Shown piece by piece: positions 1,947 through 64,000 of a stretch of 64,000 bases of DNA. The translations under genes and the position numbers were made by a program. The notes under the pieces are model-generated. The model ran no database searches. It was not told the origin of the DNA and saw only the letters and a program-made list of their open reading frames with translations. Every line of letters starts with the position of its first letter. Within the stretch, counting starts at the first letter, position 1. The stretch comes from an uncultured Gammaproteobacteria bacterium (lineage in GTDB: Bacteria > Pseudomonadota > Gammaproteobacteria > Steroidobacterales > Steroidobacteraceae): positions 55,232 to 119,231 of the forward strand of contig CAWERO010000004.1 of the NCBI GenBank assembly GCA_963811485.1, written 5' to 3'.

Positions 1947-2062
1947 ACTTCAGGTACCTCAGGAGTTGTGGCCATCTTACTGTGCCCGGATCTTGCGCGC
2001 ACGATGGCCTTGCGGCCGGGCGTCGTGCGCACCGAATTGTTCAGCGGAAGATCGGCAGTGGG

Positions 2063-2557: not shown

Positions 2558-2608
2558 GCTTAAAGTCCATGGGGCGAACGCGGCACCGGCACGACTGCAG
2601 GGCGCAGT

Positions 2609-4603: not shown

Positions 4604-4604
4604 C

Positions 4605-6212
4605 TTACATTCTGAACACGCCGAAGCGCGTGGCTGGAATCGGTGCGTTGAGCGCGGCCGACAGGCCAAGGCCGAGCACGCGGCGCGTGTCGGCCGGATC
4701 AACGATGCCGTCGTCCCACAGTCGCGCGGTGGCGTAGTACGGGTGACCCTGGCGGTCGTATTGGGCGCGGATCGGGGCGGTAAAGGCTGCCTCGTCTTCG
4801 CTGCTCCAGCTATCGCCCTTGGCTTCGAGCGCGTCGCGCCGCACGCGTGCCAGGACGTTGGCCGCCTGCTCCCCGCCCATCACGCTGATGCGGGCGTTCG
4901 GCCACATCCACAGGAACCGCGGTGAATAGGCGCGGCCACACATGCCGTAGTTGCCGGCACCGAAACTGCCGCCGACGATGACCGTCAGTTTGGGTACCTG
5001 GGCGCAAGCCACCGCGGTCACCATCTTCGCGCCATGCTTGGCGATGCCTTCGTTTTCGTATTTGCGGCCGACCATGAACCCGGTAATGTTCTGCAGGAAC
5101 ACCAGCGGGATGCGCCGCTGGCAGCACAACTCGATGAAGTGAGTGCCCTTGAGCGCGGACTCCGAAAACAGTATGCCGTTGTTGGCGATGAGGCCGACCG
5201 GCATGCCCCAAATGCGCGCAAATCCCGTGACCAGCGTGGTGCCGTAGCGGAGTTTCCATTCGTCGAATTCGCTGCCGTCGACTATGCGCGCGATGATCTC
5301 GTGGACATCGAAGGGCTTGCGCGGATCGACGGGCACGACGCCGTAGAGCTCCTCGGCGGCGTAGCGCGGTTCAACCGGCACCGTCAGGCCGAGATCAGCG
5401 CGTCGCGGCGCATTGAGTCCCGCCACGATGCGCCGCGCGATGCCCAGGGCATGCGCGTCATTCTCCGCCAGATGGTCGGCCACGCCCGACAGGCGCGTGT
5501 GTACGTCGCCGCCACCCAGGTCCTCGACGCTGACCACCTCGCCGGTGGCCGCCTTCACCAGCGGCGGTCCGCCGAGGAAGATCGTGCCCTGGTCGCGCAC
5601 GATGATCGATTCGTCGCTCATGGCCGGAACATAGGCCCCGCCGGCGGTGCAGCTGCCCATCACCACGGCGATCTGTGGGATCTCGGCGGCCGACATGGTC
5701 GCCTGATTGTAGAAAATGCGGCCAAAGTGGTCGCGATCGGGAAAGACCTCGTCCTGGCTCGGCAGGTGCGCGCCGCCCGAATCGATCAGGTACAGGCAGG
5801 GCAGGCGGTTCTCGCGGGCGATTTCCTGCGCGCGCAGGTGCTTCTTGACGGTGATCGGATAATAAGTGCCGCCCTTGACGGTGGCGTCGTTGCAGACCAC
5901 CAGGCATTCGCGCCCGGCAACGCGCCCAATACCGGTGATGAGGCCAGCGCCGGGCGCCTCGCCGTCATAGAGACCGGTGGCGGCGAGCTGCGACAGCTCG
6001 AGGAACGGCGTGCCTGGGTCGAGCAGCATCTCCACCCGTTGCCGGGGCAGGAGTTTGTCGCGCGCCACATGGCGGGCCCTGGCGATCTCGCCGCCCCCCG
6101 CCGCCGCAATGGCCAAGCGGGTGCGCAGGTCCGTAACCAGCGCTTCCATGGCCAGGCGATTGGCCTGGAATTCCTTGCTGCGGGGGTCCAGGGCTGAGTT
6201 GATCGCCGCCAT
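4605..6212 (-). CDS. liuB: 3-methylcrotonyl-CoA carboxylase beta subunit (carboxyltransferase)
   Basis: From [23 protein letters not shown] the protein is 535 aa with carboxyltransferase motifs ([29 protein letters not shown]). The 703-aa ORF-track N-terminus overlaps the divergent ivd gene and is spurious. Confidence 0.9.
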
Positions 6213-6226
6213 GATGCGCCTTGCTC

Positions 6227-6258
6227 TAATAGTCCTATTGTCCGATAATAGCACTATC
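6227..6258. promoter_or_regulatory. two AT-rich inverted-repeat boxes (AATAG-N2-CTATT and AATAG-N2-CTATC) in the divergent carboxylase/ivd intergenic region
   Basis: ctAATAGtcCTATTgtccgatAATAGcaCTATCt, with box centres 19 bp apart. They stand out in a GC-rich 66-bp divergent promoter region. They could be operators and/or -10 elements. Confidence 0.4.
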
Positions 6259-6278
6259 TTTCCGGTTGGGGCAAATCC

Positions 6279-7451
6279 ATGTCCAGCGTCGACGCCTGCG
6301 AATTCAACTTCGGCCTGGGCGATACCCTCGATGAAGTCCGTGCCCAGGTGCGCCGGTTCGCGCGGGCGGAAATCGCCCCGCTGGCCGACGAGCTCGACCG
6401 CACCAACCTGTTTCCGGCGCAACTGTGGCCAAGGCTCGGTGCGCAGGGCCTGCTTGGCCTCACTGTTCCCGAGCGCTGGGGCGGCGCTAATCTCGGCTAT
6501 CTCGCCCACATTGTGGCGATGGAGGAGATCTCGCGCGCTTGCGCAGCGGTCGGCCTGTCCTACGGTGCGCACTCGAACCTGTGTGTCAACCAGCTGCGAC
6601 TCAATGGCAACGACGTGCAGCGTGACCGCTATCTGCCGCGGCTGGTCAGCGGTGAGCACGTCGGCGCGCTTGCCATGTCCGAGGCAGGCGCCGGCTCCGA
6701 CGTGGTCTCGATGCAACTGCGCGCCGAGCGGCGCGGCTCGGGCTTCGTGCTTACGGGCCGTAAGATGTGGATCACCAATGGGCCCGATGCGGATGTGCTC
6801 GTGGTCTACGCGAAGACCAGTCCGGGCGCCGGATCAAAAGGCATCACGGCGTTCATCGTCGAGAAGGAATTTCCCGGCTACTCGACCGCTCAGAAGCTCG
6901 ACAAGCTCGGCATGCGCGGCTCAAATACCTGTGAGCTGGTGTTCGAACAGTGCCTGGTGCCGGCCGAAAACGTGCTGGGGGAGCTCGATCGCGGCGTCAG
7001 AGTTCTGATGAGCGGGCTCGACTACGAACGCGCGGTGCTTGCGGCCGGCCCGCTGGGCATCATGGCCGCGGCGCTTGACCTCGTGCTGCCCTACGTGCAC
7101 CAACGCAAGCAGTTTGGCGAGCCCATTGGCACGTTTCAACTCATGCAGGCCAAGATTGCCGACCTGTACACGAACCTCAATGCCGCACGCGCCTTTGTCT
7201 ATGCGGTGGGCCGCGCCTGTGACGCCGGCACCTGCACGCGCCAGGATGCCGCCGGCGCGGTGCTGTTCGCGGCCGAGAAGGCCACTATTGCCGGGCTCGA
7301 GGCCATCCAGATACTGGGCGGAAATGGCTACATCAACGATTATCCGGCCGGCCGGCTGCTGCGTGATGCCAAGCTCTATGAGATTGGCGCAGGCACACAG
7401 GAGATTCGCCGCCTGCTGATCGGACGCGAGCTCTACCAGAGGACCGCATGA
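6279..7451 (+). CDS. ivd: isovaleryl-CoA dehydrogenase
   Basis: Intact 390-aa ACAD with IVD-like sequence ([59 protein letters not shown]). It is divergent from the carboxylase genes. Confidence 0.9.
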
Positions 7452-8173
7452 GGGTCGAATTCGAGCCGGTGGAATTCGAGCCCGCCTACCGCAAGGTGGC
7501 GGCGGCCCTGCTCGAGCGCATCACCGATCGAACCCTGAGCGCGGGCGATCGCCTGCCGCCCGAAATCGAGCTGGCGCGCCAGTTCGGAGTCAATCGCTCG
7601 ACGGTGCGTGAGGCGCTGCGCGAACTCGAGTCAGCCGGCATGCTGCGCCGGCACCGCGGATCCAAGCTCATGATGGTGAGTCGCCCCGAGCGTGGTATTG
7701 TCGCCGACGGGGTGAGTCGCGCCCTCGCCCTCCACGATGTCAGTATCCGGGATGTCTGGGAGGGCCTGAGCATACTCGAACCGCCGATTGCCGAGGCCGC
7801 GGCCCGCAACCGCCGCGCCGCGGACCTGGCGGTCATCGACTCGACGGTCGCGCACGCCATGCCGCGCGGCGCAGATGCCGCGGCGCGCCAGGCTGCTGAC
7901 TTCTTCCGCCATGTCGGCGAAGCGACGCACAATCGCGTGCTGATGCTCGCGCATGAGCCCCTGTTGCAGCTGCTCGCGCCCTCATTGCGCACGATCATAG
8001 ACGAGGTGGCCGCGGCCCGCGCGCGCATCGCCTCGGCGCAACGCCGGATACTTGATGCCATTCGCACTGGTAACAGTAGCGAAGCGCGCGCCTGGACCGA
8101 AAAACATATCCGCGACTATCGCCGCGGCTTTGACCTGTCCGGGATCGATCTGGCCCATCGCGTGGAGCGCTAG
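7448..8173 (+). CDS. GntR-family transcriptional regulator (FadR/FCD subfamily)
   Basis: N-terminal winged HTH ([31 protein letters not shown]) plus an all-helical C-terminal domain. Its ATG overlaps the ivd stop (ATGA). Confidence 0.85.
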
Positions 8174-8278
8174 CGGTATTGACCGACCGGGGTAGGCAAA
8201 CCTAAGCTGCACCCATGCCGACCAGGTCACGAGTGTGTTGAGTATCGAACCTGGGCGCAGCTTCGCGCCGCTCCTGTC

Positions 8279-9895
8279 ATGAAGCGCTATGACGCCATCG
8301 TGATCGGGGCCGGGCACAACGGCCTGTGCAATGCGGCGTTTCTCGCCCGCGCCGGACTCGAAGTGCTGGTGCTCGAGTCAAACCCTTACATCGGGGGCGC
8401 GACGGTAAGCCGCGAACTGCATCCGCACTGGACCTACTCCAACTGCTCTTACGTGTGCAGCCTGCTGCGGCCGGAAATCTACCGTGCGTTGGAGTTGTCG
8501 CGCCACGGTCTGCAGATTGTCCCGTACGGCGGCGGGGTAACTTTCACGCGTGATGGCGACATTCTCGGCAGCTACCTCGACAAGGACGTCAAGCGTCGCG
8601 AGATCGCCCGTCACAGCCCGCGCGATGCCGATGCCTACATGCGCTACGGCCGCGACACGATGCGTCAATGCCGGCTGATCCGCTCGCTGCTGATGCGCAC
8701 GCCCCCCGACCCGAGTTCGCTCCGCTGGCGCGACCTGCGCGAACTGATGCACCTGGGCAAGGAGTTCAGCAAACTGGGTGAAGCCGGCATCTGCGACACG
8801 ATCCGCTTCTACACGCTGTCGATCGCCGATTATCTGGACGAATATTTCGAGTCCGACGTGGTCAAGGCCACGTTTGCGGGCAGCGGCATTATCGGCACGG
8901 CGCTCGGTGTGCAGTCGCCGGGTACGGCCTATATCCTGCTCCACCATTACATGGGCGACGTGGACGGCCAGATGGGTGCCTGGGGTTTTGCCCGCGGTGG
9001 CATGGGTGCTGTGGCCAATGCGCTGGCGGCAGCGCTGCAGGCGCATGGCGGAGAGATCCGGGTCGGTGCGCCGGTCGAGCGGATCCTGGTGCGCCGCGGC
9101 CGGGCGTGCGGCGTGGCGCTCGCGAACGGGGATGAGTACCAGGCGAACATCGTGGTGTCGAACGTCGACCCCAAACGCACCTTCCTCAAGTTGATGGATC
9201 CAGCCGACCTGCGGCCGGAGTTCCTGCAGCGCGCGCACAATTTCAAGATCCGCGGCTCCTCGGGAAAGCTGAATATCGCGCTCGACGGCCTGCCGGAATT
9301 TCCGGCGCTCGGAGCCGGCAATCCACTGATCAGCGGCGACATGCATTTCCTTGATTCACTCGAGCGCTATGAGCGCGCGTACGACGACTGGAAGAGTGGC
9401 ACCTGGTCGAAGGATCCCTACCTGGATCTGCTGATGCCCTCGCTGACTGACCCGACCATGGCGCCGCCGGGCAAGCATATGATGTCGGTGTTCGTGCAGT
9501 ATGTGCCCCCGAAGATCAATGGACACGAATGGACCGACGCCGATCGCGAGGCATTCAAGCAAACGGTGTTCGACCAGATCGCCCGCTACAGCCCGAATTT
9601 CCGCAGCCTGGTGCTGCATGCTGAAGTACGCACGCCGCGTGAGCTGGAGTCCGAAGTCGGCCTGACCGAAGGCAATATCTTCCAGGGCGAGCTGACCTTC
9701 GACCAGCTGTTCTTCAACCGCCCCTTCCCCGGCTACGCGCAGTATCGCGGCCCGATACGTGGCGTTTACATGTGCGGTTCAGCGACTCACCCCGGAGGGG
9801 GGGTGATGGCTGCGCCGGGCGCCAATGCCGCGCGGGAGATACTCCGCGATCTGCGGCGCAACTCCACCGTGCCCGAGGGGTGGAGCGATGACTGA
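8279..9895 (+). CDS. FAD/NAD(P)-binding oxidoreductase, phytoene-desaturase/amine-oxidase superfamily (module 1, subunit A1)
   Basis: Intact 538-aa ORF with an N-terminal dinucleotide fold (YDAIVIGAGHNGLCNAAFLARAGLEVLVLE) and a C-terminal [25 protein letters not shown]. Confidence 0.8.
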   Translation: MKRYDAIVIGAGHNGLCNAAFLARAGLEVLVLESNPYIGGATVSRELHPHWTYSNCSYVCSLLRPEIYRALELSRHGLQIVPYGGGVTFTRDGDILGSYLDKDVKRREIARHSPRDADAYMRYGRDTMRQCRLIRSLLMRTPPDPSSLRWRDLRELMHLGKEFSKLGEAGICDTIRFYTLSIADYLDEYFESDVVKATFAGSGIIGTALGVQSPGTAYILLHHYMGDVDGQMGAWGFARGGMGAVANALAAALQAHGGEIRVGAPVERILVRRGRACGVALANGDEYQANIVVSNVDPKRTFLKLMDPADLRPEFLQRAHNFKIRGSSGKLNIALDGLPEFPALGAGNPLISGDMHFLDSLERYERAYDDWKSGTWSKDPYLDLLMPSLTDPTMAPPGKHMMSVFVQYVPPKINGHEWTDADREAFKQTVFDQIARYSPNFRSLVLHAEVRTPRELESEVGLTEGNIFQGELTFDQLFFNRPFPGYAQYRGPIRGVYMCGSATHPGGGVMAAPGANAAREILRDLRRNSTVPEGWSDD

Positions 9896-11449
9896 GCGGT
9901 GGCCGGTCATCGTCATTGGCGCCGGTCACAACGGCTTGGTGTGCGCGGCGTACCTGGCGCGCGCCGGGCGCAAGGTGCTGGTGCTGGAGGGAGCGACGCA
10001 GGTAGGGGGTGCCGCGGTAACGCGCGAGTTCGCGCCCGGCTTCCGGGTGTCGGCGGTGGCGCATCTGCTGCACCTGCTCGACCCGGTCGTGGAGCGGGAG
10101 CTGGCACTGGCGCAGCACGGGCTGGCTTACGCGCGAACCGGACTGCGCACCGTGGCGCTGTCGACCGAGCGGCCGCCGCTCAGCCTGGCGGGCGGTGAGG
10201 TGTACGCCGGCGAGGTTTCGAGTGCGGATCGCGCGGCGCTGCGCTCGCATGCCGCCCGCATGCAGAAATTTGCACAGGTGATCGCGCGTCAGCACGGTCG
10301 CGTACCCCCGCGGCTCCGCTTCGAGTCCTGGCGTGATGTGCTGCCGGCAGCGGCTGTCGCCCTGGATATACGGCGGCTCGGCCGGCGCGGACATGCAGGA
10401 ATTCCTGCGCGTGGCGACCATGAATATCTTCGACGTGCTGGAAGAGCAATTTGATCACCCGCAGCTCAAGGCGGCGCTGGCGCTCGACGCAGTCCTGGGG
10501 ACGCGGCTTGGCCCGCGGTCGGGCAACAGCGTGTACGCCGCGCTTTACCGCCAGAGCGGTTCGGTCAACGGCGCGCAAGGCGCGCTCGCGCTGCCGCGTG
10601 GCGGAATGGGAGCAGTGACCGCCGCGCTCGCCGCAGCGGCGCGGAGCGCCGGGGCGGAGATTCGCTGTGGTTCGCCCGTTGCAGAAATCATCGTGAAGGA
10701 AGGCCGCGCGGCCGGTGTGCGCCTGCAGCAGGGGCAGGAGTTGATGGCGGACATCGTGGTGTCGAATGCGGACCCGAAAGCCACGCTGCTGCGGCTGCTG
10801 GGCGCGCGTCACCTGGAGGCGGAGTTCGCGCGCCGCGTGCATCAGGTGCGCACCACGGGTACCGCCGCGAAGCTCCATCTGGCGCTGAGCGGCCGTCCGC
10901 ATTTCCTGGGCCTGGCGGCCGAACAACTGGGCGAGCGCCTGGTGATTGCTCCCGATATCGATTATATCGAGCGCGCCTTCAACCCCGCCAAGTATGGCGA
11001 GTGCTCCGCCGCAGCCGGTGATGGAAATCACCCTGCCCTCGACCCATGAGGCCAGCCTGGCGCCAGCCGGCAGCCACGTGCTTTCGGCCGTGGTGCAATA
11101 TGCTCCCTACGATCTCAAGGGCGGCTGGGCGGCCGGCAAGGCGCGCTTCCAGGCCGCCATCATGGCCGTGCTCGAGCGCTATGCGCCAGGGATCGGCGCC
11201 CTCGTGCTGCATGCGGAACTGCTGACGCCGGCCGACATCGAGCAGCAGTTCGGAATCAGCGGCGGACACTGGCACCACGGCGAGCTGGCGCTCGATCGCT
11301 TCATGATGCTGCGGCCAGTCGTGGGCGGCGCGCACTACGCCATGCCGGTGGACGGACTCTACCTGTGCGGCGCGGGCTGCCATCCCGGCGGCGGCGTCAT
11401 GGGCAGCGCCGGACGCAACGCGGCGCGCGTAATACTCGGGAGGCGGTGA
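9888..11449 (+). pseudogene. FAD/NAD(P)-binding oxidoreductase, same superfamily (module 1, subunit B1); 2 frame breaks as sequenced
   Basis: MTERWPVIVIGAGHNGLVCAAYLARAGRKVLVLE. The sequence runs through ORFs 9825..10454, 10333..11049 and 10946..11449 and ends [26 protein letters not shown]. The breaks are near 10385 and 11015, located by comparison with paralog B2. The ATG at 9888 lies inside the last codons of A1. Confidence 0.8.
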
Positions 11450-11454
11450 GCATC

Positions 11455-12645
11455 ATGCTGGCTCGCGATCACTTCCGGCAGACCGTCTGCGAGACGCCGT
11501 TTCACCCGCGGACCGCAGCCGCCAACCAGTTGAACCTGTGGCATCGCTGGCGCGATCACACGGTCGCCGACGCCTATATCGATGTCGGCATGGAATACAA
11601 CGCGATTCGCAACAGCTGTGCGGTGTTCGACCTGTCGCCGATGACCAAGCACCTGATCACCGGTCCGGATGCGCTCGCGTACATGAACCGCCTGGTTACG
11701 CGCGATGTGGCAAAGATCAAGCCGGGGCGCGTCGGCTACTGCTTGTGGTGTGATGACGCCGGGCAGGTGATCGACGATGGCACCATTTTCCACCTGCGCG
11801 AGGGTGTTTACCGGCTGTGTTCGCAGGAGCGGCAACTCGACTGGCTGTACACATCAGCCCTCGGGTTCGAGGTGCGGATCTGCGAGGAAACCAATGAGGT
11901 CGCCGGGCTCGCGTTGCAGGGCCCGACCTCGTGCGCGGTCCTGAAAGCCATGGGGCTCGCGAGCATTGAGACACTGACGCCATTTGGCCTGCGCAGTTAC
12001 CCGTTTGCGGGCGGCCAACTCGAGGTGTCACGCACCGGCTACACCGGCGACCTGGGATACGAACTGTGGATCGATCCGGCGCGTGCCCTGCAACTCTGGG
12101 ATGCCTTGTTCGCTGCCGGCCAGCATCACGGCATCCGCGCCATCGGCACGCTGGCGCTGGAGATGAGCCGTGTCGAGGCCGGCTTCATCCAGGCTGGCGT
12201 CGACTTCCTGCCCGCCGACCGGGCGGTGCGCGCCGATCGCACACGCTCGCCGTTCGAACTCGACCTGGGGCGCCTGGTCGATTTCAGCAAAGCCAATTTC
12301 ACCGGCCGCCGAGCGTTGCTCGAGGAGCAGCGCCGCGGCTCGCGCTTTCGGCTGGTCCGTCTCGACGTTGAAGGCAACAAAGCTGCCAAGGACGCCTACA
12401 TCTACGACGGGCGGCGCCGCAATATTGGCGTCGTCACCTCATCGATGTGGTCGCCGGCCGCCAAGGCCAGCATCGCGCTGGCTTCGGTCACGATGCCGTG
12501 GGGCGCGCCAGGCGATGAGCTGTTTGCCGAGATCTACTACCAGAAGGAACTCAGGTGGAACCGGTTCATGGCGCGCTGCCGGGTCGTCGAGGGTGCATTC
12601 TTCGATCCACCGCGCCGGCGGCAGACTCCCGCGGCCGACTGCTGA
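11455..12645 (+). CDS. aminomethyltransferase (GcvT-fold, folate-binding) family protein (module 1, T1)
   Basis: Intact from MLARDHF (GGGAGG 12-17 nt upstream). GcvT-family sequence: AIRNSCAVFDLSPMTK, LALQGPTS, SRTGYTGDLGYELW, ALEMSRVEAG. Confidence 0.85.
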   Translation: MLARDHFRQTVCETPFHPRTAAANQLNLWHRWRDHTVADAYIDVGMEYNAIRNSCAVFDLSPMTKHLITGPDALAYMNRLVTRDVAKIKPGRVGYCLWCDDAGQVIDDGTIFHLREGVYRLCSQERQLDWLYTSALGFEVRICEETNEVAGLALQGPTSCAVLKAMGLASIETLTPFGLRSYPFAGGQLEVSRTGYTGDLGYELWIDPARALQLWDALFAAGQHHGIRAIGTLALEMSRVEAGFIQAGVDFLPADRAVRADRTRSPFELDLGRLVDFSKANFTGRRALLEEQRRGSRFRLVRLDVEGNKAAKDAYIYDGRRRNIGVVTSSMWSPAAKASIALASVTMPWGAPGDELFAEIYYQKELRWNRFMARCRVVEGAFFDPPRRRQTPAADC

Positions 12646-12661
12646 TCACAGCGGATTCGCC

Positions 12662-14007
12662 ATGATCACGGGCGTGCAACGATTCTGGGCGGGCGCGGCC
12701 GGGCAGAATCCGCCGACCATCGCTCGCGCCCAGGGGCTCCACATCTGGGATCGCGCGGGCAAGCGCTACATCGATGTCACCTCCGGTCCGATCGCCGTCA
12801 ACATCGGTCACGGCAATGAGCGCGTGTTGGGCGCCATGCGCGAGCAGGCCGAGCGATTCTGCTTTGCCTATCCCAGCAATTTCGAAAGCGAGCGCAGCAC
12901 GGAACTGAGCCAGCGGCTTGCCCGCCTGGCCGGGCCCGGCCTTGATTGCGCGTTTTATGTGTCGAGCGGCTCCGAGGCCGTGGAGAAATGCCTGCAGTTC
13001 GCGCGCCGCGTAGCGCTGGCGCGTGGCGAGGGCGCGCGCTACAAGATGATCAGTCGCAATCCGTCCTATCATGGCAGCACGCGCGCCACGATGGCGCTAT
13101 CGGCCGACCCGGCCTACGCGCCCTATCTGATCGGCTACCCGCCGGGGCTCCACGTGCCGGCGCCCTCGAGCTACCGGCCGCCGGCCGGCGTGGGAGCGGG
13201 GGTGCATGCGCTGCAATGCGCGGAGGCGCTGCGCGCGCGCATCAGTGAAGCCGGCCCCGACTCGGTGCTGGCCTTCATCATGGAGCCGGTGATGGGTTTC
13301 TGTGGTGGCGCCGACAGCGCGCCGCCCGAGTACTACCGGCGCGTCCGCGAGATCTGCGACGAATTTGGCGTGCTGCTGATCTACGACGAGATCGTCAGTG
13401 GCGCTGGCCGCACTGGCACCTTCCTGGCGGCCGACCGCTGGCCCGCGGCGCGACCCGACCTGGTGGTACTCGCCAAGGGTCTGGGCGGTGGCTACGCTCC
13501 GCTGGCCGCGTTCCTGGCGCCCGCGCAGGCTGGTGGATGCGGTGGCCGGCGCCGGTGGATTCCATCGTCGGTCACACCCACAAGGCGCAGCCACTGGCTT
13601 GTGCCGTTGGTCTGGCGGTGCTCGACGTGACCGTCGAAGAGCGGCTGATCGAGAAAGCGGCGGAGCTGGGCGAGTACCTGCGCGGCCAGCTGCGAGGGCT
13701 CCAGCGCGACAACCCCGTGATCGGCGACGTGCGCGGCCTCGGCATGCTGAACGCCATCGAGATCGTCGCCGATCGCGACAGCAAGCGCATGCTGCCGCGG
13801 GAACTGGACGTCATCGGTCGGGTGCAGGCCCTGGCGCGCGAGCAGGGCCTGCTCATCTACGGTCGCCGCACGCACGCCGGGCGCTTTGGCGACTGGATCA
13901 TGGTCGCGCCGCCACTGATTGCGACGCGCGCGGACGTCGACGAGATCGTCGAGGGTCTGGGCCGCTGCCTGACCCGCTACCAGCAGGAACAGTCGGTCGC
14001 GAGCTAG
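12662..14007 (+). pseudogene. class-III (omega-type) PLP aminotransferase; 2 frame breaks near 13525-13565
   Basis: MITGVQRFW.., GPIAVNIGHGNERV, SGSEAVE, LLIYDEIVSGAGRTG, LAKGLGGGYAPL. The sequence then hops frames (RLVDAVAGAGGF, then IVGHTHKAQPLACAVGLAVL) and ends at TAG 14005-14007. Confidence 0.85.
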
Positions 14008-16601
14008 CGCCGCTGCTCGAACACCTTGCGCGCCGCGGCGATCTGATCAAGCGTCATCTGTCGTTCCAGTGCCGTGTTGAAATCCGGATGCACCCGCGCC
14101 GCATCGGCCAGGCGGTCGATCCAGGCGATGAAGTAGTCGGCGTCGATGCCGCAGTGCAGTGATTGCTCCCGGGCTGGTCAAGAATACCGGGTTGGTCGTG
14201 GCGTAGGGATAGATGTCGAAGATGTCCGGGCTCGACATGCTCGTTCCAGGCACGCAGCAGCAACCAGCCCGGCGCCGTGACGGTGATCTGTTGGTCGAGA
14301 TCGGCGCTGCGGCGGTCGCCCTTGAGCGGAATTTCGAGCAACACCTTGCCCTGCTGCAGGACCTGCAGATGGTCCATGGGGACGATCGAGCGCATGAAGC
14401 CGCTGCAGGTGGACTGTAGCCCCATTGGATGGCAACTCGAGTTCGGATCCTGGCGCCTTGCCGTCGACTTCAAGACCGAGCAACGCACTGTTGGTCGCCA
14501 TGCTGTGTCCGGCCTTGAGCGCCTGCAGCCAGCGGCCGAGGCGCGTATGACGATCCGCCGCAGTGGCCGCCGCCACCCCACCCGCTCCGTCCTCCACATA
14601 GACGCGGTCCAGACCCACCGGACCGTGCATCGAGGCGTAATTCGCCATGGCGTCGGTTCCAGCCGCGGCCGACGGGCGGAACCCGCAGTTGAGCAGCCGG
14701 TGCCAGACGGTGGCGCTGGCCTGGTGATCGCTGAACCCGACGACTTCGTAGTAGTCCACCTTGCCCAGCGCCACATCGACCGGCAGTTCGCTGGTCAGCG
14801 TGGCGTCGTGCGCCGGATCGGGCGGATCATCGTAGGGATGTACGTACCCGACCAGCGCCGACTGCGCATGGGCCAGGTCCGCAATCGCCGCATTGGTCGG
14901 ATAGAGGCTCGCCGCCGCGGTGTTCGCGTAGGCCGCGTAACCAGGCAGCAGGAAGTGATCGTTCAGGCCCAGCAGCCCCAGGTGCCCCCAGTAGCTGGTG
15001 TGGTACTCCTGGCCGTGCGAGAGCAGCACCGCAGCGCGTCGAGGCGCGGTCGGGTTCGGGCGAGAAGTAGGCGATATCCGGAATGCGCTGTTCCTTGTTG
15101 ACGACCAGGTCGAATACGACATCCAGATCTTCGGCACTGCGCCTGCGCGACCAGCCGCTGCGGATTGTCGCGGTAGGCGCCGGCGTAGTTCATGTGCACG
15201 TGCACGTCCGCGCTGTGCCAGTGCTCGCGCCAGGCCGCCGGCAGGTGCAGCGGTTCGAGTGCGATACGCTCGCTGCGTCGTGGCGCCGGCCTGAATCAGC
15301 ACTTCGCGTCGGGCGATGAGCGTGGCGAGTCCACGCCAGACGGTGATGCTTCGCTGGTCCCGGCGGCAGCGTCAGGAGTGAGCGGCCCTGGCTGTGGAAA
15401 TAATGGGTCTCGAAGCGCTGCGCTGCGCGATCGAAGCCATCGTCGCCGCGGCATCCAGGCGTCATCGGGCGCGTAGGCGCGACCGTCGGCCGCCACCACC
15501 GAAACGCGCGCCGGCAGATCGGCGCCGTTGCGTACGCGCCGCGTCCGCGATGCGCAGCTGCAAGCTGGCCCATCGGATGCAGGTACTGTCGCTCGCGTAT
15601 CGCGAGCACCTGCGAGCGCGCGCCCGGCATATCGAGCACGTGGATCTGCGTAATCGCCCGTGCTGTTGCTGAGATAGGCCAGCGCCTCGCCGTCCGCCGA
15701 CCAGCGCGCGCCGGTGGCGTCTGCGTCGCCGTAGGTCAGCGCCAGCGGATCGCCGTTTCCGGCCGCGGTCGTCAGCCAGATCTGGTGCGAGTTGCGGCCG
15801 GCATAGGAGGCATAGGCAATGCGCTTGCCGTCGGGCGACCAGTCGGGCCGCGCTCGCCAGGTGGTTTCTTCCTGCGCGCACCAGGCTGGGTTCGGCATCG
15901 CGCTCGAGCGCGCGGCGCCAGATGGAGCCGGTGCCGTAGATGATCTCGGGATTGCCGACGTAGACCAGCTCCTTGCCGTCCGGCGACCAGCTCGGCGACA
16001 GCTCATGATCGAAGGCGCTGTAGTAGTAGCGCGGCGTAGTGCTCTTGCGCTCAGGCCAGACCGCCCCGCCCTGCGAGCTGGTTGCCATTGAGCGTGCCCG
16101 ACGAACACGTGGAAGTGCCCGGTGCCGGCGGTCGACACCCAGGCGATGCGCGTTGCCGTCGGGCGACCAGCGCGGCTCGCAGTTGACGGCGCCGCCGTTG
16201 GTGAGCGGCGTCGACTGCGCCGGTGGCCGAGGTCGAGCAGCTGCAGTTCCATCGCGTCGCCGAGATAGCGCATGAAGACGACGTGCGGCCGTCGGGCGAC
16301 ACGTCCGGCTGGTAGTCGTAGCCTGCGCCCGCTCGTCAGTTGCACGGCGGTGTCCGAATCGAGCGCTTGCTTCCACAGGCTCCCCTGCATCGAATAGACG
16401 AGCGAGCGGCCGTCCGGCATGAAGGCCAGGCTCCCCGGGCCGCTGGTCAGCTGCGGCAGGTACATCTCGCGGAAATAGTAGTGATGCGGCACGTCGATCT
16501 GGCTGAGCACCGCGTGCCGATCCGCCAGCGCCGCGCGCGCACAGCAGCAGTCCGCCCAGCAGCGCCGCAGCGCGCGCCACTCGCGCAGCGCGCGAACGCA
16601 T
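14004..16601 (-). pseudogene. secreted TolB-like beta-propeller / PHP-type (CehA/McbA-like) metallohydrolase fusion protein; many frame breaks
   Basis: Signal peptide MRSRAARVARAAALLGGLLLCA (ATG 16601). Repeated propeller signatures (FMPDGRSLVY, WSPDGKELVY, DWSPDGKRIAYAS, WSADGEALAY). Then a PHP-like part (DVHVHMNYAG, GHLGLLGLN, GYVHPYDD, KVDYYEVVGFSD, WHRLLNCGFRPSAAAGTDAM). Fragments are spread over at least 6 ORFs in all three frames. The stop TAG overlaps the stop of the convergent aminotransferase. Confidence 0.65.
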
Positions 16602-17951
16602 CAGCGCAGCTTCGCTCCGCGAGCACTTCGCGGATCGAACGGTGCAGGATGTCCAGCCCTTCATCGAGGAGCGGCGCATCGATCATCAGCGGCGGAATGA
16701 TGCGCAGGCCGCTGGCGCCGCATTCGAGCAGCAGCAGGCCGTTCTCGAAGGCGCGCGTGACCAGCCGCGTGGCGAATTCCTTCGCCGGCGCCTTGCTGAC
16801 GCGGTCCTTGACGAACTCGACGCCGATCATCAGCCCCGCGCCGCGCACGTCGCCGATCACCGGGAATTCCTGCGCGAATTTCTGCAGCCGCTCCATGGCG
16901 CGCTGCCCCATGACGCGCGCGTTCTCGGCGTAGCCGCCGCTGACGAGCTTGAGCGTCGCCAGCGCCGCCGCGCAGCAGACCGGATTGCCGCCGAAGGTGT
17001 TCGCGTGCGAGCCCGGCGGCCATTTCTCCATGATCTTGCGTGCGCCGACCATCATGCCGATCGGCAGTCCCGAGCCCAGGCCCTTGGCCAGCGTGATCAT
17101 GTCCGGCCGCACGCCCGTCGTGCTGCCAGGCGAACATCTTGCCGGTGCGGCCGATGCCGGCCTGCACCTCATCGAATATCAGGCAGATGCCGTGCTTGTC
17201 GCACAGCGCGCGCAGCGCCGGCGAGGAATCCCGGCGGCGGCACGATGTAACCGCCCTCGCCCTGGATCGGTTCGATGAGGATCGCGGCGACTTCAGTTGG
17301 CTGGCAGGTTGCGCTCGAACAGCATCTCGATGTACGCGATGCACGGCGCGACCCTGGTCATCGCCGGCGAACAGCGGACGATAGGGATTCGGGTACGGCA
17401 CGTGCACCACGCCCGGCATCGCCGGAAAATAGCCGCGCTGCTGCGTGTACTTCGAGGCCGTGAAGGCCAGCGAGCCCATGGTGCGGCCATGGAAGCCGCC
17501 GAGGAAGCCGATGTAGCGCCCGCGCCCGCTGACCTGGCGCGCGAGTTTCAGCGCCGCTTCGACCGCCTCGGTGCCGGAGTTGGCGAAGAAGCACATCGCC
17601 GGCCCGCTCACCGGATCGAGCGCGGCAATCGTCTCGGCCAGTTCGACCTGGCGCCTCGTGCCAGTAGTCGCAGGAGATGTGCAGGAAGCGTTCGGCCGCC
17701 GTCTTGATGGCGGCGACCACGTCCGGATGGCTGTGCCCGGTGGAGCACACGGCGATGCCGGAAGCGAAATCGACGAAGCGATTACCGTCGACGTCCCACA
17801 CTTCGGCGCCGCGGCCGCGCTCCATGACGAAGGGGTAGTCGCGCACGTAGCTCGGCGAGACCACGGCCTTGTCGCGCTCGATGAGCGCACGCGCCTTGGG
17901 ACCGGGAAGTGGTCTGGCTGTGCTGCGTTGTACGTCGTTCATGTCATTCAA
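16601..17951 (-). pseudogene. class-III aminotransferase, 4-aminobutyrate aminotransferase (GabT)-like; at least 4 frame breaks
   Basis: MNDMNDV..VVSPSYVRDYPFVMERGRGAEVWDVDGNRFVDFASGIAVCSTGHSHP, FFANSGTEAVEAALKLAR, LIFDEVQAGIGRTGKMFA, ITLAKGLGSGLPIG, THANTFGGNPV, GDVRGAGLMIGVEF. The 3' end is uncertain. The TGA at 16601-16603, which overlaps the next ATG, needs one more frame change. Confidence 0.8.
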
Positions 17952-47177: not shown

Positions 47178-47197
47178 TTGGCATAGTCACGCATCAG

Positions 47198-58338: not shown

Positions 58339-59530
58339 CTAGAAATCTCCCGGCGGCGTCACGCGCCGTGCGTTCGGGCGCAAAGAAGGGTTTCTCGACC
58401 ACCTGCGCCCGGCACATGCGCCGTTCCCAGACCAGTTCGCGGCTCAGGTATACCTCCGCCCACATGGTCGTCCCCATCGCAAAGTGCGGCGCTTCGACCA
58501 TAGCAAGCGCGATGTTGCGTTTGCAAGTTGGCGACCACATCGCCGAGGTGACGCTGCCGATTTCCGCCTGGCCCTTGCGGTCGGCGTACAGCAAGGCGTT
58601 CACGGCCGGCTTGTTGCCCGCGATGTCCAGGCCTACGAGCTGCCGCTGCAGTCCCTGGCGCTCTTGATCCAGCAGCGACCGCCGGCCCGTGAAGTGACCC
58701 TTGTCGAAATCGACCAGCCAGCCCAGCCCCAGTTCCAGGGGCGAGCGGCTGGTGCCGATGCGCACCGTGCCCTCGGCCGAGATGAAGTCGATATTGGGCA
58801 TCAGGAACCCGGCCTCGATGCGCGCCATGTTGAGCGCGCGCGAACCGATGGCGCGGATGCCGCGGCTCTGGCCGGCGGCCATCAGCGCATCCCAGAGCTG
58901 GTTGGCCTGGAGCGGATCCACCCACAGCTCGTAGCCCAGGTCGCCGGTAAAACCCGTGCGCGAGACCATCAGGCGCATGCCCGCAGCTTCGAAAAAACCG
59001 AACTCGAAGGGCTTCAGGCGCTCGACACCCGCCAGGCCCAGTTTCTTCAGCACGGCGCACGAGGTCGGTCCCTGCAGTGCCAGCGCGGCGATCTGTTCGG
59101 TGACTTCGCTGACCTGTACGTCGAAGCCGATTGCGGAATCGAGGAACCAATCGAGCTGCCGTTCGGCGGTGCACAGCCGGTACTCGTTCTCGCCCAGCCT
59201 GAATACGGTGCCGTCGTCGATGATGTGGCCGGCGTCGTTGCACCAGACGCAGTAGCTGACGCGGTTCACGCGCAGCTTGCTCAGGTCGCGCGTCACCAGC
59301 CGATTCAGGTAGCGGCCGGCATCGGGGCCGGCGATGCGGTACTTGACCATCGGCGTGAGGTCATAGACCGAGCAGGCATTGCGGATGGCGAAATATTCCT
59401 GGCCGGCATTGGTGAACACATCGACCGTGGTGTAGCCGGCCCACGGGACGAAGCTGTCGACCTGGCTGAGTGCGCGGGCCCGCTCGTGGAATGGCGTTGG
59501 CAGCAGCGGCTGCCTGAAGTGCGGAGCCAT
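58339..59530 (-). CDS. aminomethyltransferase (GcvT-fold) family protein (module 2, T2); probable frame break in the last 10 or so codons
   Basis: MAPHFRQPLLPTPFHE.., AIRNACSVYDLTPMVK, LALQGPTS, SRTGFTGDLGYELW, ALNMARIEAG. About 55-60% identical by eye to T1. As sequenced the frame runs on into potA. A 1-nt shift gives ..RRVTPPGDF-TAG, parallel to the T1 end RRRQTPAADC. Confidence 0.8.
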
Positions 59531-59544
59531 ATCGGCGGTATCGC

Positions 59545-61147
59545 TCACGTAGCTGCCTCCCCCGCGATGACTTGCCTGGCGGCATTGCGTCCGGCAATGC
59601 CCATGACTCCCCCGCCCGGGTGGCAACTGGCGCCGCACAGGTAGAACCCCGGCAGTGGCGTACGATGCTGGGTTGCGCCGGGTACCGGGCGCACGGCATA
59701 GAACTGATCGAGCGCCAGGTCCACGTGATGCCAATGTCCGCCGCTGATCCGGAACTCGCGTTCCAGTGTCCGGCGGGGTGAGCAGCTCGTGCTCGCGCAC
59801 CAGCGCACGCAGCCCGGGTGCGTAGCGGTCGAGCTGGTCGATGAGCTGGCGCGCGAAAATCTCGCGCTGCCCTTCCCAGCCGCCAGCGAGCTGGTACGGC
59901 GCATACTGCACGATGGCCGACAGCACGTGCTTGCCGGCAGGCGCCAGGCCCGGATCGCTCAGCGTCGGCAGGGTGATCTCGAGCGCCGGTGCGGCGGAAT
60001 ACTCGCCGTACTTGCTGTGGTTGTAGGCGTGCTCGACATAGTCGAGCGAAGGCGCGATCAGCAGCCGCGCGCCGTGCGCGGCTGCGGGCAGCCCGCTGAA
60101 CTTCGGCAGCCCGTCGAGCGCCAGGTGGAGCTTCGCCGCCAGGCCGCGCGTGCGCAGATGGTGCACGCGGCGCACGAAGGCCGTGTCGAGGTGCTCGCTG
60201 CCGACCAGTCCCAGGAAGGAAGTCCTGCGGGTCAGCGCTGGAAATGACGGCGCCCGCCGCGATCGACTCGCCCGATTGCAGCGTGACGCCGCAGGCACGA
60301 TCATCGGCGACCGTGACCCGCGCCACTGGCGCGGCCAGGCGGATCTGCGCTCCCGCGGCACGCGCGGCGGCCGCCAGCGCGTCGGCTACGGCGCCGAGCC
60401 CACCGACGGGCAGCGCGAGCGCGCGCACGCCGGCCCCATGTTGTGCGGCGAGGCGATACAACAAGGTCATCACCGTACCCGGTGCGCGCGGTCCGAAGTT
60501 CGTGCCGAGTACGGCGTCAAACCCCAGCGCGCCCTGCAGGAGCGGTGAGCGGAAGTGTTCCTGCAGCAGGTCGTAGGCATTCATGCCGACGATGCGCAGC
60601 AGCTCGCGCATGTCGCGCCTGCCCAGCCGGCGGATCCGCCAACCGAGGCGCATGAGGTTCAGCCGGTCGCTCCAGCGATCGGTGCCGAGCCGCGGCGGCA
60701 GCGCTTCCAGCATCGGATTCAGTCACGGCGGCAAAGCGCTGCATCAGCGCCGTGAAGCCGCGCGTAGGCGTCGCGTGTCTTCGCGGCTCGACTGGTCCCT
60801 CGATACTGCCAGGGCCGGAGACCGCCGAGCAGCAGCGCGGCGCCGTCCGGCGCGAGTGCGGCCGTCGGGAGCGATTGCGCCGCCCAGCGCAGGCCGTGCT
60901 GTCTCCAGCGCCAGTTCCTCGATCAGGCGCTGCCGGCATCTGGTGCAGCAGGTGCGCGCCGGCCGATACGCGGAATCCGGGCGCGAACTCGCGCGTGACG
61001 GCTGCTCCGCCCAGGCGTTCCGCCGCTTCGAGCACCAGCACGGAGCGGCCGGCGCGCGCCAGGTAGGCCGCGCAGGCCAGGCCATTGTGACCGCCGCCAA
61101 TGACGATGCAGTCATAGGCCGCACGTGCGTGTAGCCACGGAGTTCAT
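59545..61147 (-). pseudogene. FAD/NAD(P)-binding oxidoreductase, CrtI/amine-oxidase superfamily (module 2, subunit B2); at least 6 frame breaks
   Basis: [163 protein letters not shown] clear paralog of B1. The ATG overlaps the A2 stop (ATGA). Confidence 0.8.
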
Positions 61148-62752
61148 GTCGCCGCCAGCCGCAGGTCGCGCAGCACGGCGCGCGCGGCGTTTGCGCCCGG
61201 CGCTCCCATCACGCCGCCGCCCGGATGCGTGCTCGAGCCGCACAGGTACAAGCCCGCGCAAGCGGCGTGCGGTATTGCGCGTAGCCGGGAATGGGCCGGT
61301 TGAACAGCAGTTGATCGAAGGTCAGTTCGCCCTGGAAGATGTTGCCTTCGGTCAGGCCGACTTCGTTCTCGATATCGAAGGGCGTGCGCACCTCGGCGTG
61401 CAGGATCAGGCTCTTGAAGTCCGGGCTGTGACGCGCGATCGTGTCGATCACGGTGTCGCCGAAGGCCTTGCGCTTGGCTGCGTCCCAGGGGCCGCTGGCG
61501 AGCTGGTAGGGGCAGTACTGCACGAACACCGACATGTAGTGCTTGCCGTCCGGCGCCATGGTCGGATCGATCTGCGACGGAATAAGCATGTCGATGTAGG
61601 GGGCGCGCGACCAGCGCGCCGTCCTTCCAGTCGTCGTAGGCGCGCTCCATCATCTCGATGGTGTCGGTCACGTGCATGTCGCCGCGGGTGCTGGGCGAGC
61701 CGGCCGGAATGGCCGGGAACGTCGGCAGGCCGTCGAGCGCGATGTTGAGCTTGCCCGAGGAACCGCGGATCTTGAAGTTGCGCACCTGGCGCAGGAAGTC
61801 TGCGGGCAGTTCCTTGGCATCGACCGTTTCGAGGAAGGTGCGCTTCACGTCCATGTTGGAGAGCACCAGCCGGGCGTCGATCTCCTCGCCAGTCGGCCAG
61901 CGCCACGCCGACGCTGCGGCCGTTGCGCACCAGGATCCGCTCCACCGGGGCGCCGGCCCGGATGGTCCCGCCGCTCGCCTGGAGCGAGGCCGCCAGCGCC
62001 TGCGTCACTGCCCCCATGCCGCCGCGCGCGAAGCCCCAGGCGCCGACCGTATCGTCGATGTCGCCCATGTAATGATGCAGCAGCACGTAGGCGGTGCCCG
62101 GCGAGCGCGGCCCGAGCGCCGTGCCGATGATCGCGCTGCCGGCCATGTGCGCCTTGACGATCTCGCTTTCGAAGTATTCGTCGAGGAAATCCGCGATGCT
62201 CATGGTCCAGAAGCGCAGCGTGTCGTACATGCGCGCCTCGCCGAGGCGGTGGAAGTGCCCGCCCAGGTACAGCAGTTCGCGGATGTCGCGCGGCTTGAAC
62301 GAAGTCGGGTCCGGCGGCTCGCGCATCAGCAGCGGCTTGATGAACTTGCACTGGCGGATCATGTCGCGCGCGAAACGGTCGTAGGCCTCGGCGTCGCGCT
62401 TCGAGTGACGCGCGATTTCGCGGCGCAGCGCGTCGTGGTTGTCGTACAGCGCCAGATGCCCGCCATCGTGCATCATCGTGCAGCCGCCGTCGTAGGGAAT
62501 GATCTGCAGGCCGTAGCGCGGCAGCTCGAGCGTGCGCATGATCTCGGGCCGCAGCAGGCTGCACACGTACGAGCAGTTCGAGTAGGTGAAGTCCTGGTAC
62601 AGCTGGCGGCTGACCGCCGCGCCGCCGATGTAGGCATTGCGCTCGAGCACCTGCACCTTGAGCCCGGCGCGCGCCAGATAGCAGGCCGCCACCAGGCCGT
62701 TGTGCCCGGCGCCGATGACGATGGCATCGTACTGCTCGCGCTCGCGGGCCAT
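61144..62752 (-). pseudogene. FAD/NAD(P)-binding oxidoreductase, CrtI/amine-oxidase superfamily (module 2, subunit A2); 3 frame breaks
   Basis: [148 protein letters not shown]. About 65% identical by eye to A1. Confidence 0.8.
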
Positions 62753-62770
62753 GCGCCGGCTGCCGGACGT

Positions 62771-64000
62771 TCAGACTGTGCTGCTGCGCGCCGTAAGTGC
62801 GTTCGGTCACCTCGCGCGCACCGTTCAGCGTCACGTCGACGGCCTTCTCGAAGGCCGTCAGCGTGTCGGCTAGGCAGGAGTCGTCGTGCGCCGCGCTGAT
62901 GAACCAGGGTTCGCGCGAATCCGGCTCGCACAGGATCAGCTCGTCGTGCAGCACCCGCGCCATCGCGTCGTAGAAGGAATAGTCGCTGCCCTTCCAGTCG
63001 CGATAGTTGCGCGGCGGCTCCTGCGCGAAATACAGGCCGCTCATCGACGGATGGCCGACGAAGCTGTGCGGGATGCCGCGCGCGCCGAGCACCGCGTGCA
63101 TGCCGGCGCGCAGGCGCGTGCCGTAGTCGGCGATGCGCTCGAGCGCGTCGGTCTCGTCGAGGATCTCCAGGCACTTCTCCGCCGCGGCCATCGACACCGA
63201 GTGCGCCGTGTAGGTGCCGCCGTGCGCGACGCCCTTGCCGAGCTTGCGCATGATGTCCTCGCGCCCGGCCAGCACCGAGATCGGATAGCCGTTGGCGACC
63301 GCCTTGGCGAAGGTGCACAGGTCGGCCTTGACGCCGTAGAGCTCCTGCACGCCGCCGCGCGCCACGCGGAAGCCGGTCTTCACCTCATCGATGAGCAGCA
63401 CCGTGCCGTACTTGTCGCACAGGCTGCGCGCCGCGCGCAGGTATTCGGGCTCGGCGGCGATGCCCAGGCAGTTGCCCATGATCGGCTCGATCAGCATGCA
63501 GGCGATGCGCCCGGCCGTGCGCTTGAACACGTCCTCGAGCTGGTTGGCATCGTTCGCCTGCACGAAGTGCGCGAAGCCGCGCAGCCCGACCGGAATGCCC
63601 TCGCTGTAGGGCTGTATCTGCGGATCGCCGACCTGGCTCCACTTCTCCATCGGCGTGTACCACATGGCCGCGTCGAACAGGCCGTGGTAGCCGCCCTCGA
63701 GGATGATGTAGTCGTCCCGGCCGGTGTAGGCGCGCGCCAGGCGCAGGCCCGCCATGACCGCCTCGGTGCCGGAATTGGAAAAGCGCACCAGTTCGGCCGC
63801 CGGCACCATCTTGGGGATGCGCTCGGCGACCTGGTATTCGCGCTCGGTCGACAGCGCGAACACGCCGCCGACCTCCATGCCTTCGCGGGCCGCCGCGTCG
63901 ACGCGCGGATCGGCGTAGCCGAGGATCGCCGGGCCGTAGCCCAGGCGATAGTCGACGTAGACGTTGTCGTCGATGTCGGTGACGCGCGCGCCGCGCCCGT
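62771..64000 (-). CDS. class-III aminotransferase (glutamate-1-semialdehyde aminomutase-like); 5' end outside the window, 3' end uncertain
   Basis: ..VTDIDDNVYVDYRLGYGPAILGYADPRVD.., FSNSGTEAVMAGLRLAR, LLIDEVKTGFRVARGG, CTFAKAVANGYPIS, GGTYTAHSVS. As sequenced there is no stop until 61845, well inside A2. A TGA at 62771-62773 becomes in-frame after a 1-nt shift. Confidence 0.75.

Follow-up and report, generated by a model that had tools for sequence, protein, structure and literature searches.

Two paralogous PYROXD2-family flavoproteins and a GcvT-fold protein form a conserved gene triad that may encode a folate-coupled N-demethylase

We analysed a 64,000-nucleotide (nt) stretch of DNA, hereafter the window, from contig CAWERO010000004.1 of an uncultured Gammaproteobacteria bacterium of the Steroidobacteraceae. 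We focused on a gene cluster at positions 7448-14007 (module 1) that encodes a GntR-type regulator, two flavoproteins (A1 and B1), a GcvT-fold protein (T1) and a class-III aminotransferase. We propose, with moderate confidence, that A1, B1 and T1 act together as a folate-coupled N-demethylase of three proteins whose substrate is a methylated amine, and that the adjacent aminotransferase removes the primary amino group thereby exposed. On our best reading, the module would be an uncharacterised, widespread variant of the folate-coupled oxidative demethylases with a new architecture. The folate-capture logic of sarcosine oxidase, dimethylglycine dehydrogenase and the trimethylamine N-oxide (TMAO) demethylase Tdm would here be built from another flavoprotein family, with a free folate subunit.

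The genes were read directly from the window sequence and the translations of its open reading frames (ORFs), with domains assigned through Pfam and family equivalogs through NCBIfam. For comparison, we used two Steroidobacteraceae metagenome-assembled genomes recovered by protein search (L001 and L002), in which the gene order of module 1 is the same and both B (519 amino acids [aa]) and the aminotransferase (450 aa) are intact. All five genes of module 1 lie on the forward strand, where the initial annotation had placed them, with an 8-nt overlap between A1 and B1 followed by gaps of 5 nt and 16 nt. A1 (8279..9895) is one intact ORF encoding a PYROXD2-family flavin adenine dinucleotide (FAD) flavoprotein of 538 aa with a Pfam Amino_oxidase domain. 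The ATG of B1 (9888..11449, stop codon at 11447-11449) is located at 9888, 8 nt inside A1 (ATGACTGA), and its coding sequence is divided into three frame pieces. Across these pieces, A1 and B1 shared 35-41% identity. The two proteins are paralogues, as had been suggested, and each has VIGAGHNGL close to its N terminus and HPGGGVM close to its C terminus. T1 (11455..12645), an intact stand-alone GcvT-fold protein of 396 aa with GCV_T and GCV_T_C domains, has its ATG (11455) 5 nt past the B1 stop, and the ATG (12662) of the aminotransferase gene (12662..14007) lies 16 nt past the T1 stop. The aminotransferase is a pyridoxal-phosphate enzyme of class III: its frame-corrected sequence matched Aminotran_3 at 281 bits (cutoff 30.5, E 2e-83), although no NCBIfam equivalog could be assigned (best model PRK07483, 369.5 vs 485). 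Thus, the domains predicted for these proteins (Amino_oxidase/NAD_binding_8, GCV_T plus GCV_T_C, and Aminotran_3) were all found in Pfam.

The A-B-T order recurs far beyond this window. Scanning a T-protein alignment over one genome per species returned at least 596 related loci, of which we analysed the best 80. These 80 loci came from Gamma-, Alpha- and Betaproteobacteria: the gammaproteobacterial carriers belonged to Steroidobacteraceae, Woeseiaceae, Halieaceae, Porticoccaceae, Lysobacterales and Arenicellales, the alphaproteobacterial carriers to Kordiimonadaceae, Kiloniellaceae, Rhodobacterales, Hoeflea, Mesorhizobium, Manganibacter and Hyphomicrobium, and the betaproteobacterial carriers to Burkholderiaceae. 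Among the 60 loci with at least 3.4 kilobases (kb) of sequence 5′ of T, 59 had A followed by B followed by T, and the remaining locus had a fragmented A. Such recurrence across independent genome loci far exceeds what chance would give, and the neighbourhood conservation on which the initial annotation had made its hypothesis depend was thereby established in three proteobacterial classes. A further 16 loci with truncated upstream DNA retained at least B. Cultured carriers of the triad include Kiloniella laminariae DSM 19542, Shinella zoogloeoides XJ20 (plasmid p1), Parasedimentitalea marina W43 (pW43C), Fuscovulum ytuae YMD61 and Hoeflea olei. In a plasmid collection, the seven records with A at 61-66% identity were the same seven with T at 46-51%; the next A-like matches reached 39%.

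The three genes are also translationally coupled and have co-evolved. In 54 of 68 loci, the beginning of B overlaps the end of A (by 4, 8 or 14 nt); the same holds for T and B in 42 of the 68, where the overlap is 1 or 4 nt. The pairwise-identity matrices of A, B and T were correlated (r = 0.77-0.86), and for each of the two triads in the window (module 1 and a second copy, module 2, described below), A, B and T had the same nearest loci. From the correlated matrices and shared nearest loci, we conclude that the triad is inherited and duplicated as one block. In two loci, a second triad was present a few kb downstream of the first, in the order B-like, A-like, T (L069 13243-17601 and L070 14000-18316). 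In another (L028 8420-11173), B and T lie in one frame without a stop, with the junction ...ILRSNRSKTNLAGEKGECCMRSHDETMM..., which reflects a genuine fusion of B with T or else an error of assembly. A search for A-B, B-T and A-B-T fusions among the 150 best T-family representatives returned only proteins of 525 aa or less, except for one Tdm-like protein. Taking the co-occurrence, junction overlaps and correlated divergence together with the single B-T read-through, we infer that A, B and T may form a physical complex. No characterised triad member was found in NCBIfam, the PDB or the full-text literature, and full-text searches returned no description of the triad, in line with the earlier statement that no characterised pathway was known to have this composition.

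T1 carries the folate part of the proposal. It belongs to the GcvT-fold folate-binding superfamily (PF01571/PF08669), with GCV_T at 179 bits (E 1e-52) and GCV_T_C at 35.8 bits, and fell below all NCBIfam equivalog cutoffs. The nearest model was Tdm (250 bits vs a cutoff of 1100), of which only positions 382-760 of 763 were matched. The scores were 203.9 vs 300 and 139.8 vs 235.85 for the GcvT models PRK00389 and TIGR00528, 144 vs 1164 for soxA, 132.6 vs 410 for DmdA, and 60 bits, far under the cutoff, for LigM. We rejected T1 as a glycine cleavage T protein on the basis of the GcvT scores and of the lack of gcvH or gcvP among its neighbours, and as a TMAO demethylase on the basis of its Tdm score and of the lack of a fused DUF1989 domain. 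The nearest solved relative was the C-terminal tetrahydrofolate (THF) domain of TMAO demethylase (PDB 9q59, E 5e-45); 1pj5 (E 1e-23), 4p9s (E 2e-20), 3tfh and 5x1i also matched. This C-terminal domain binds THF with a Kd of about 149 nM, and formaldehyde is channelled to it from the catalytic site to give methylene-THF (PMC13619132). T orthologues stand alone, measure about 400 aa and lack an N-terminal domain; the DD motif, RTGYTGxxGYE and the Arg that corresponds to R480 of Tdm do not vary among them. Phe and Leu replace the THF-contacting Tyr101 and Arg223 of E. coli GcvT, as they do in Tdm. We propose that T1 binds THF and captures a one-carbon (C1) unit.

Both flavoproteins belong to the flavin amine oxidoreductases (PF01593; cutoff 19.8), A1 with 71.2 bits (E 1e-19) and B1 with 69.3 bits; NAD_binding_8 also matched, and a DAO profile match was confined to the Rossmann N terminus. 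By pairwise similarity, both are members of the PYROXD2 family. A1 shared 38% identity with mouse PYROXD2 (P0374) over 549 aa (E 4e-121), compared with E 2e-16 for CrtI (4dgk), and B of L001 shared 35% over its full length (E 8e-93). The motifs PGxxYxLLHHxMG, GNIFxG and HPGGGVMG are common to the A/B family and PYROXD2. For A and B, "PYROXD2-family" is a better label than the "CrtI-like" of the initial annotation.

We weighed whether A and B might be carotenoid or isoprenoid desaturases or ketolases (CrtI/CrtO-like) that lie next to T incidentally. CrtO was the top NCBIfam match of A1 and B1, CrtI and CrtD were the top PDB matches by sequence and fold, and source databases name homologues "phytoene dehydrogenase-like". 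However, with the CrtO model (cutoff 1000), A1 and B1 reached 279.5 and 233.9 bits, and with the crtI family (cutoff 238.1), 121 and 135 bits. No crtB, crtE or crtY gene was found in any of about 85 triad loci, the similarity to PYROXD2 was far above that to CrtI, and the linkage to T and to amine-catabolic genes was invariant. On score cutoffs and gene context, we thus rejected CrtO/CrtI membership and give the carotenoid explanation a negligible chance; the assignment to a characterised carotenoid clade that would have counted against the initial hypothesis did not materialise.

To distinguish the roles of the two flavoproteins, we compared their conservation across 62 triads. A was the most conserved triad member (mean pairwise identity 66%, 140 positions invariant) and B the least conserved (49%, 43 positions). 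GxGxxG and HPGGG persist in both proteins, each of which therefore probably binds a dinucleotide cofactor. The PYROXD2-type motif PGTAYxLLHHYMG and one further motif were kept by A only, B having diverged at both, and on this ground we propose that A is the catalytic subunit and B an auxiliary one. An AlphaFold2 model of the A1 monomer (predicted local distance difference test [pLDDT] 75, predicted template-modelling score 0.82) matched the CrtD/CrtI fold first (4rep, template-modelling [TM] score 0.71), with the nicotine oxidoreductase NicA2, monoamine oxidase (MAO), putrescine oxidase and pseudooxynicotine amine oxidase close behind; what the model contributed was limited to the level of the fold. 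An exact-sequence look-up of A1 gave no match.

In the proposed mechanism, A, as the PYROXD2-type enzyme in which the active-site motifs are conserved, would use FAD to oxidise a secondary or tertiary amine at its N-CH3 bond, producing an iminium ion whose hydrolysis would give the demethylated amine and a formaldehyde equivalent. T with bound THF would trap this C1 unit as 5,10-methylene-THF. B, a diverged paralogue with FAD-binding motifs, would partner A as a structural or electron-transfer subunit. The exposed primary amine would then be transaminated to an aldehyde by the adjacent class-III enzyme and oxidised further by an aldehyde dehydrogenase. We infer the folate use, reaction direction, electron acceptor and substrate of A-B-T in this scheme.

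Several known systems share parts of this design. Heterotetrameric sarcosine oxidase (SoxABDG) is, like the proposed triad, a multi-subunit flavoenzyme that couples N-methyl oxidation to transfer of the C1 unit to THF in a GcvT-fold module, and it also pairs a catalytic flavoprotein with a second Rossmann-fold nucleotide-binding part. It differs in having a catalytic DAO-family beta subunit with covalent flavin mononucleotide, in carrying the GcvT fold as a fusion with its alpha subunit, and in possessing small gamma and delta subunits; in the triad, both flavoproteins are PYROXD2/CrtI-type paralogues and T is a separate protein. We rejected the triad as a sarcosine oxidase of this type on the basis of the soxA score of T1, the lack of small conserved ORFs in the triad, and the restriction of the DAO match to the N terminus. 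Dimethylglycine dehydrogenase and oxidase combine flavin-dependent N-methyl oxidation with folate capture of an iminium or formaldehyde in a GcvT fold homologous to T1 (1pj5, 4p9s), but they are single polypeptides with a DAO-family flavin domain and no paralogous second flavoprotein. Tdm, whose THF domain is the closest solved and the closest NCBIfam relative of T1, has a Zn-dependent DUF1989-fold catalytic domain, rather than a flavoprotein, fused to its folate domain. LSD1/KDM1A and other flavin amine oxidases share the Pfam superfamily of A and B, with NicA2, MAO and putrescine oxidase as close fold matches, but sequence identity is only 14-18%, and they are single-subunit enzymes that lack a dedicated GcvT-fold partner. 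LSD1 demethylates N-methyl-lysine via a flavin-generated iminium, and Luka and colleagues reportedly found in 2011 and 2014 that it binds folate. CrtI, CrtD and CrtO share with A the Rossmann plus substrate-domain architecture; they differ in family cutoffs that A and B do not reach and in a carotenoid gene context that the triad lacks.

Genes of methylated-amine and polyamine catabolism surround the triad. Among the best 80 loci, a divergent BetI-like TetR repressor gene was present at 48 (112 bits vs a BetI cutoff of 118), a gene for a HemL/GntE-like class-III aminotransferase directly 5′ of A at 31, a PotF-like binding protein with an ABC transporter at 27, and GbcA-like Rieske oxygenase alpha subunits at 27 plus 12. 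Less frequent neighbours encoded an ADP-forming acyl-CoA ligase (21 loci), an acyl-CoA dehydrogenase (18), a PuuC- or BADH-like aldehyde dehydrogenase (17) and a glutamine-synthetase-like protein (13); rarer still were a DAO oxidase, an enoyl-CoA hydratase, and an old yellow enzyme (OYE)/Fe-S flavoprotein of the amine-dehydrogenase type. A carnitine 3-dehydrogenase infrequently found beside the triad passed its equivalog cutoff (611 vs 592 bits); a PhnA-like match among the neighbours was too weak to be accepted (E 3e-6). By this gene content, the neighbourhood is a setting of quaternary and methylated amine and polyamine catabolism. The initial annotation had hypothesised folate-coupled oxidative N-dealkylation or deamination of an N-alkylated amine or polyamine followed by transamination, an interpretation that the comparative genomics of these loci supports well.

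The most probable substrate class, as our best guess, is an N-methylated omega-amino compound or polyamine with PotF-type uptake, because of the PotF-type uptake genes, the omega-transaminase, the BetI-like sensor and the Rieske enzymes; the latter could take a quaternary precursor down to a tertiary amine. Neighbours that vary with lineage indicate carnitine-type CoA chemistry, Puu-like gamma-glutamylation or OYE/Fe-S amine dehydrogenase-like proteins, and different lineages probably plug the triad into different pathways.

The same neighbours could be read differently, with all genes in one pathway and T not a partner of A and B. T would then be a solo THF-dependent methyltransferase (as DmdA is on a sulfonium and LigM on a methyl ether) or a scavenger of Rieske-derived formaldehyde, and A and B would cleave a non-methyl C-N bond, like polyamine oxidase. 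Stand-alone GcvT-fold methyltransferases do exist, T1 has matches to DmdA and LigM and to PDB entries 3tfh and 5x1i, formaldehyde-releasing GbcA-like Rieske oxygenases are encoded in many triad loci, and the PotF-like transporters and PuuA-like and PuuC-like genes suggest polyamines. By contrast, T is tied to A-B in 59 of 60 loci with overlapping B/T junctions, Rieske genes are absent from module 1 and many other loci, and T1 scores far under the DmdA and LigM cutoffs, its nearest relative being a formaldehyde-capture domain. We thus regard this explanation as unlikely.

Several observations weigh against an A-B-T demethylase. No gene for an electron acceptor (electron-transfer flavoprotein or cytochrome) was consistently linked to the triad. 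The neighbour sets vary (acyl-CoA ligase, acyl-CoA dehydrogenase and enoyl-CoA hydratase vs glutamine-synthetase-like protein and DAO), and no single substrate emerges from them. A modelling study took the substitutions at Tyr101 and Arg223 as incompatible with THF binding in Tdm (PMC12560246), although that reading is contradicted by a later study of Tdm by cryo-electron microscopy and isothermal titration calorimetry (PMC13619132). The A1 model is only moderate in quality and is least confident exactly at the conserved motifs: residues 203-234, 462-472 and 501-508 (window positions about 8885-8980, 9662-9694 and 9779-9802) have pLDDT below 50 and coincide with the top conserved motifs shared with PYROXD2, which would fit loops that depend on cofactor, substrate or partner. 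Finally, two of the four genes, B1 and the aminotransferase gene, are out of frame in the window sequence.

Concerning this last point, DNA alignment with L001 and L002 located four single-base +1 insertions in module 1, near 10389 and 11006 in B1 and near 13528 and 13566 in the aminotransferase gene, confirming the frame breaks flagged at the outset. Like B1, the aminotransferase is spread over three frames. Three of the four insertions lengthen a G or C run. For B1, the frame pieces shared 79-82% identity with the intact B proteins of L001 and L002; for the aminotransferase, the figure was 83-87% against their intact orthologues. Beyond each break, this identity continues in a restored frame without stops. 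Across the window, breaks were frequent at about 10000-20000 and 57000-63000, with 1-9.9 kb clean, and all those examined were +1 single-base insertions relative to relatives, with no deletions. They also occurred in the protease, second aminotransferase and aldehyde dehydrogenase genes downstream of module 1, and at about ten sites in module 2, where every clear case was an insertion relative to its relative L056. Because the breaks are insertion-only, homopolymer-biased and spread over unrelated genes, those in B1 and the aminotransferase gene are most likely sequencing or assembly errors rather than signs of gene decay. Two genes of four out of frame, and breaks that cluster in parts of the window, could instead mean that module 1 is a decayed pseudogene cluster in its host genome and that the four breaks are real mutations. 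Decay would have to account for the G/C-run bias, for the lack of any deletion, for the same type of break in unrelated neighbours and module 2, and for stop-free restored frames that remain conserved, while both genes are intact in relatives; we give it only a slim chance.

Module 2 (58367..64000, reverse strand), recognised by tblastn, is a second copy in the commoner arrangement. It consists of an aminotransferase gene (about 62780 to past the window end), A2 (about 62752-61147), B2 (about 61116-59527) and T2 (about 59536-58367), all on the reverse strand, and its nearest relatives are the Steroidobacteraceae loci L056, L049 and L043. The T2 stop codon has been lost to a +1 insertion near 58369, and the ORF runs on to 57836. 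Module 2 adjoins a methylated-amine/polyamine island, with which it occupies 45444-64000 (mostly reverse strand). The island encodes a PotA-like ATPase (57190-58338), a TonB-dependent receptor fragment (about 54700-57043), a GbcA-like Rieske protein (53291-54358), a beta-lactamase-family protein (52140-53294), an amidohydrolase (50029-52140), a PotF-like binding protein (48461-50095) and two permeases (47198-48735), followed by one ORF that merges a BetI-type TetR with a Rieske oxygenase (45444-47177).

The surroundings of module 1 are different. A GntR/FCD regulator of 241 aa is encoded upstream (7448..8173, forward strand); with an N-terminal GntR winged helix-turn-helix (70.9 bits) and a C-terminal FCD domain (42.9 bits), it belongs to the FadR/FCD subfamily of the GntR family, and it reached no NCBIfam equivalog cutoff. 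The initial annotation had listed it as the regulator that the other four genes follow. Its gene was kept in L001 and L002 and was absent from the other approximately 80 triad loci, which mostly have a BetI-like TetR instead, and its start overlaps the stop of the preceding gene (ATGA at 7448-7451). Because of this start/stop overlap, it is probably on the same transcript as, and co-translated with, that gene (6279..7451, forward strand), a 390-aa ORF for an acyl-CoA dehydrogenase with 88% identity to its L002 orthologue, for which NCBIfam matches only the generic acyl-CoA dehydrogenase family.

In the 105-nt spacer between the GntR gene and A1, a 35-nt block on the forward strand (8175..8209; GGTATTGACCG...GGCAAACCTAAGCTG) with CGGT-N4-ACCG and TTGACC was near-invariant in the window, L001 and L002, and the intergenic DNA flanking it was not conserved among them. 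This block is a candidate promoter or operator of the A-B-T-aminotransferase transcript, and only a candidate, because a consensus sigma-70 scan of 7300-14300 called no promoter, in the block or elsewhere. Further along the spacer, we read an eight-codon upstream ORF (8215..8241, forward strand; MPTRSRVC). L001 has MSTASRAC at the aligned position, and in L002 a deletion joins the ATG of the upstream ORF to the A gene.

The window 5′ of module 1 (801-7451) holds a leucine-catabolism-like cluster, with reverse-strand genes for an acyl-CoA dehydrogenase (801-1946), a flavin reductase (about 2069-2557) and the alpha (about 2612-4585) and beta (about 4608-6212) subunits of methylcrotonyl-CoA carboxylase, and with the forward-strand acyl-CoA dehydrogenase gene coupled to GntR (6279-7451) as its last member. 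Convergent to module 1 on the reverse strand (14007-19518) are genes for a Tricorn/PD40-like peptidase, a second class-III aminotransferase and an aldehyde dehydrogenase, all frameshifted in the window and intact in L002. In L001, a gene for an Xaa-Pro dipeptidase-like amidohydrolase is also present after the aminotransferase gene. The arrangement of module 1, with GntR upstream, the aminotransferase downstream and leucine-type acyl-CoA genes farther upstream, is by this comparison lineage-specific.

The bacterial triad bears on mammalian PYROXD2, which belongs to the same family as A and B (38% and 35% full-length identity, respectively) and shares their motifs. It differs in that it is a lone mitochondrial protein for which neither a partner nor a reaction is known, and the precise biological function of the human protein is unknown (PMC8777681); the bacterial members occur as an A/B pair with a dedicated folate protein. 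The PYROXD2 locus is associated at P < 1e-307 with a urinary nuclear magnetic resonance signal assigned to trimethylamine, and also with dimethylamine, N-methylpipecolate, caprolactam and asymmetric dimethylarginine (PMC4564198); N6-methyllysine is mentioned in other studies that we retrieved. Full-text literature searches found no PYROXD2 enzymology, nor the idea of N-demethylation drawn from bacterial linkage. That bacterial members are locked to a folate C1-capture protein within methylated-amine islands is a clue that the PYROXD2 family performs N-demethylation. Tentatively, and with less than even confidence, we suggest that the whole family, including the human mitochondrial enzyme, may demethylate N-methyl amines in conjunction with a folate C1 acceptor. 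A Shinella sumterensis plasmid (NZ_CP132306.1; L086 5995-8746) carries a single PYROXD2-like gene with a GcvT-family gene of another clade directly after it. Its flavoprotein has A-type motifs and is 39% identical to A1, its GcvT-family protein is 28% identical to T1, and the pair lies inside a carnitine-type cluster (enoyl-CoA hydratase, ADP-forming CoA ligase, 3-hydroxyacyl-CoA dehydrogenase and BKACE). This one-flavoprotein pairing, from a separate clade, lends the proposal independent support.

In soil and sea alike, nitrogen and carbon circulate to a major extent as methylated amines and betaines, and the triad is found in lineages that are abundant in marine and sediment habitats (Woeseiaceae, Halieaceae, Porticoccaceae, Kiloniellaceae and Rhodobacterales). 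In annotations, its members carry no more than the names "NAD(P)/FAD-dependent oxidoreductase" and "aminomethyltransferase family protein", and knowing what the triad does would supply a piece missing from models of methylated-amine turnover and one-carbon flux. If the family-wide suggestion is true, folate-coupled oxidative demethylation would have a third architecture of independent evolutionary origin, with the triad as its prototype, beside the DAO-GcvT enzymes and Tdm. PYROXD2 is among the strongest metabolite quantitative trait loci known and is linked to a severe infantile mitochondrial disorder. The bacterial context offers a testable function for it and, if true, the missing biochemical explanation for the metabolite associations of human PYROXD2.

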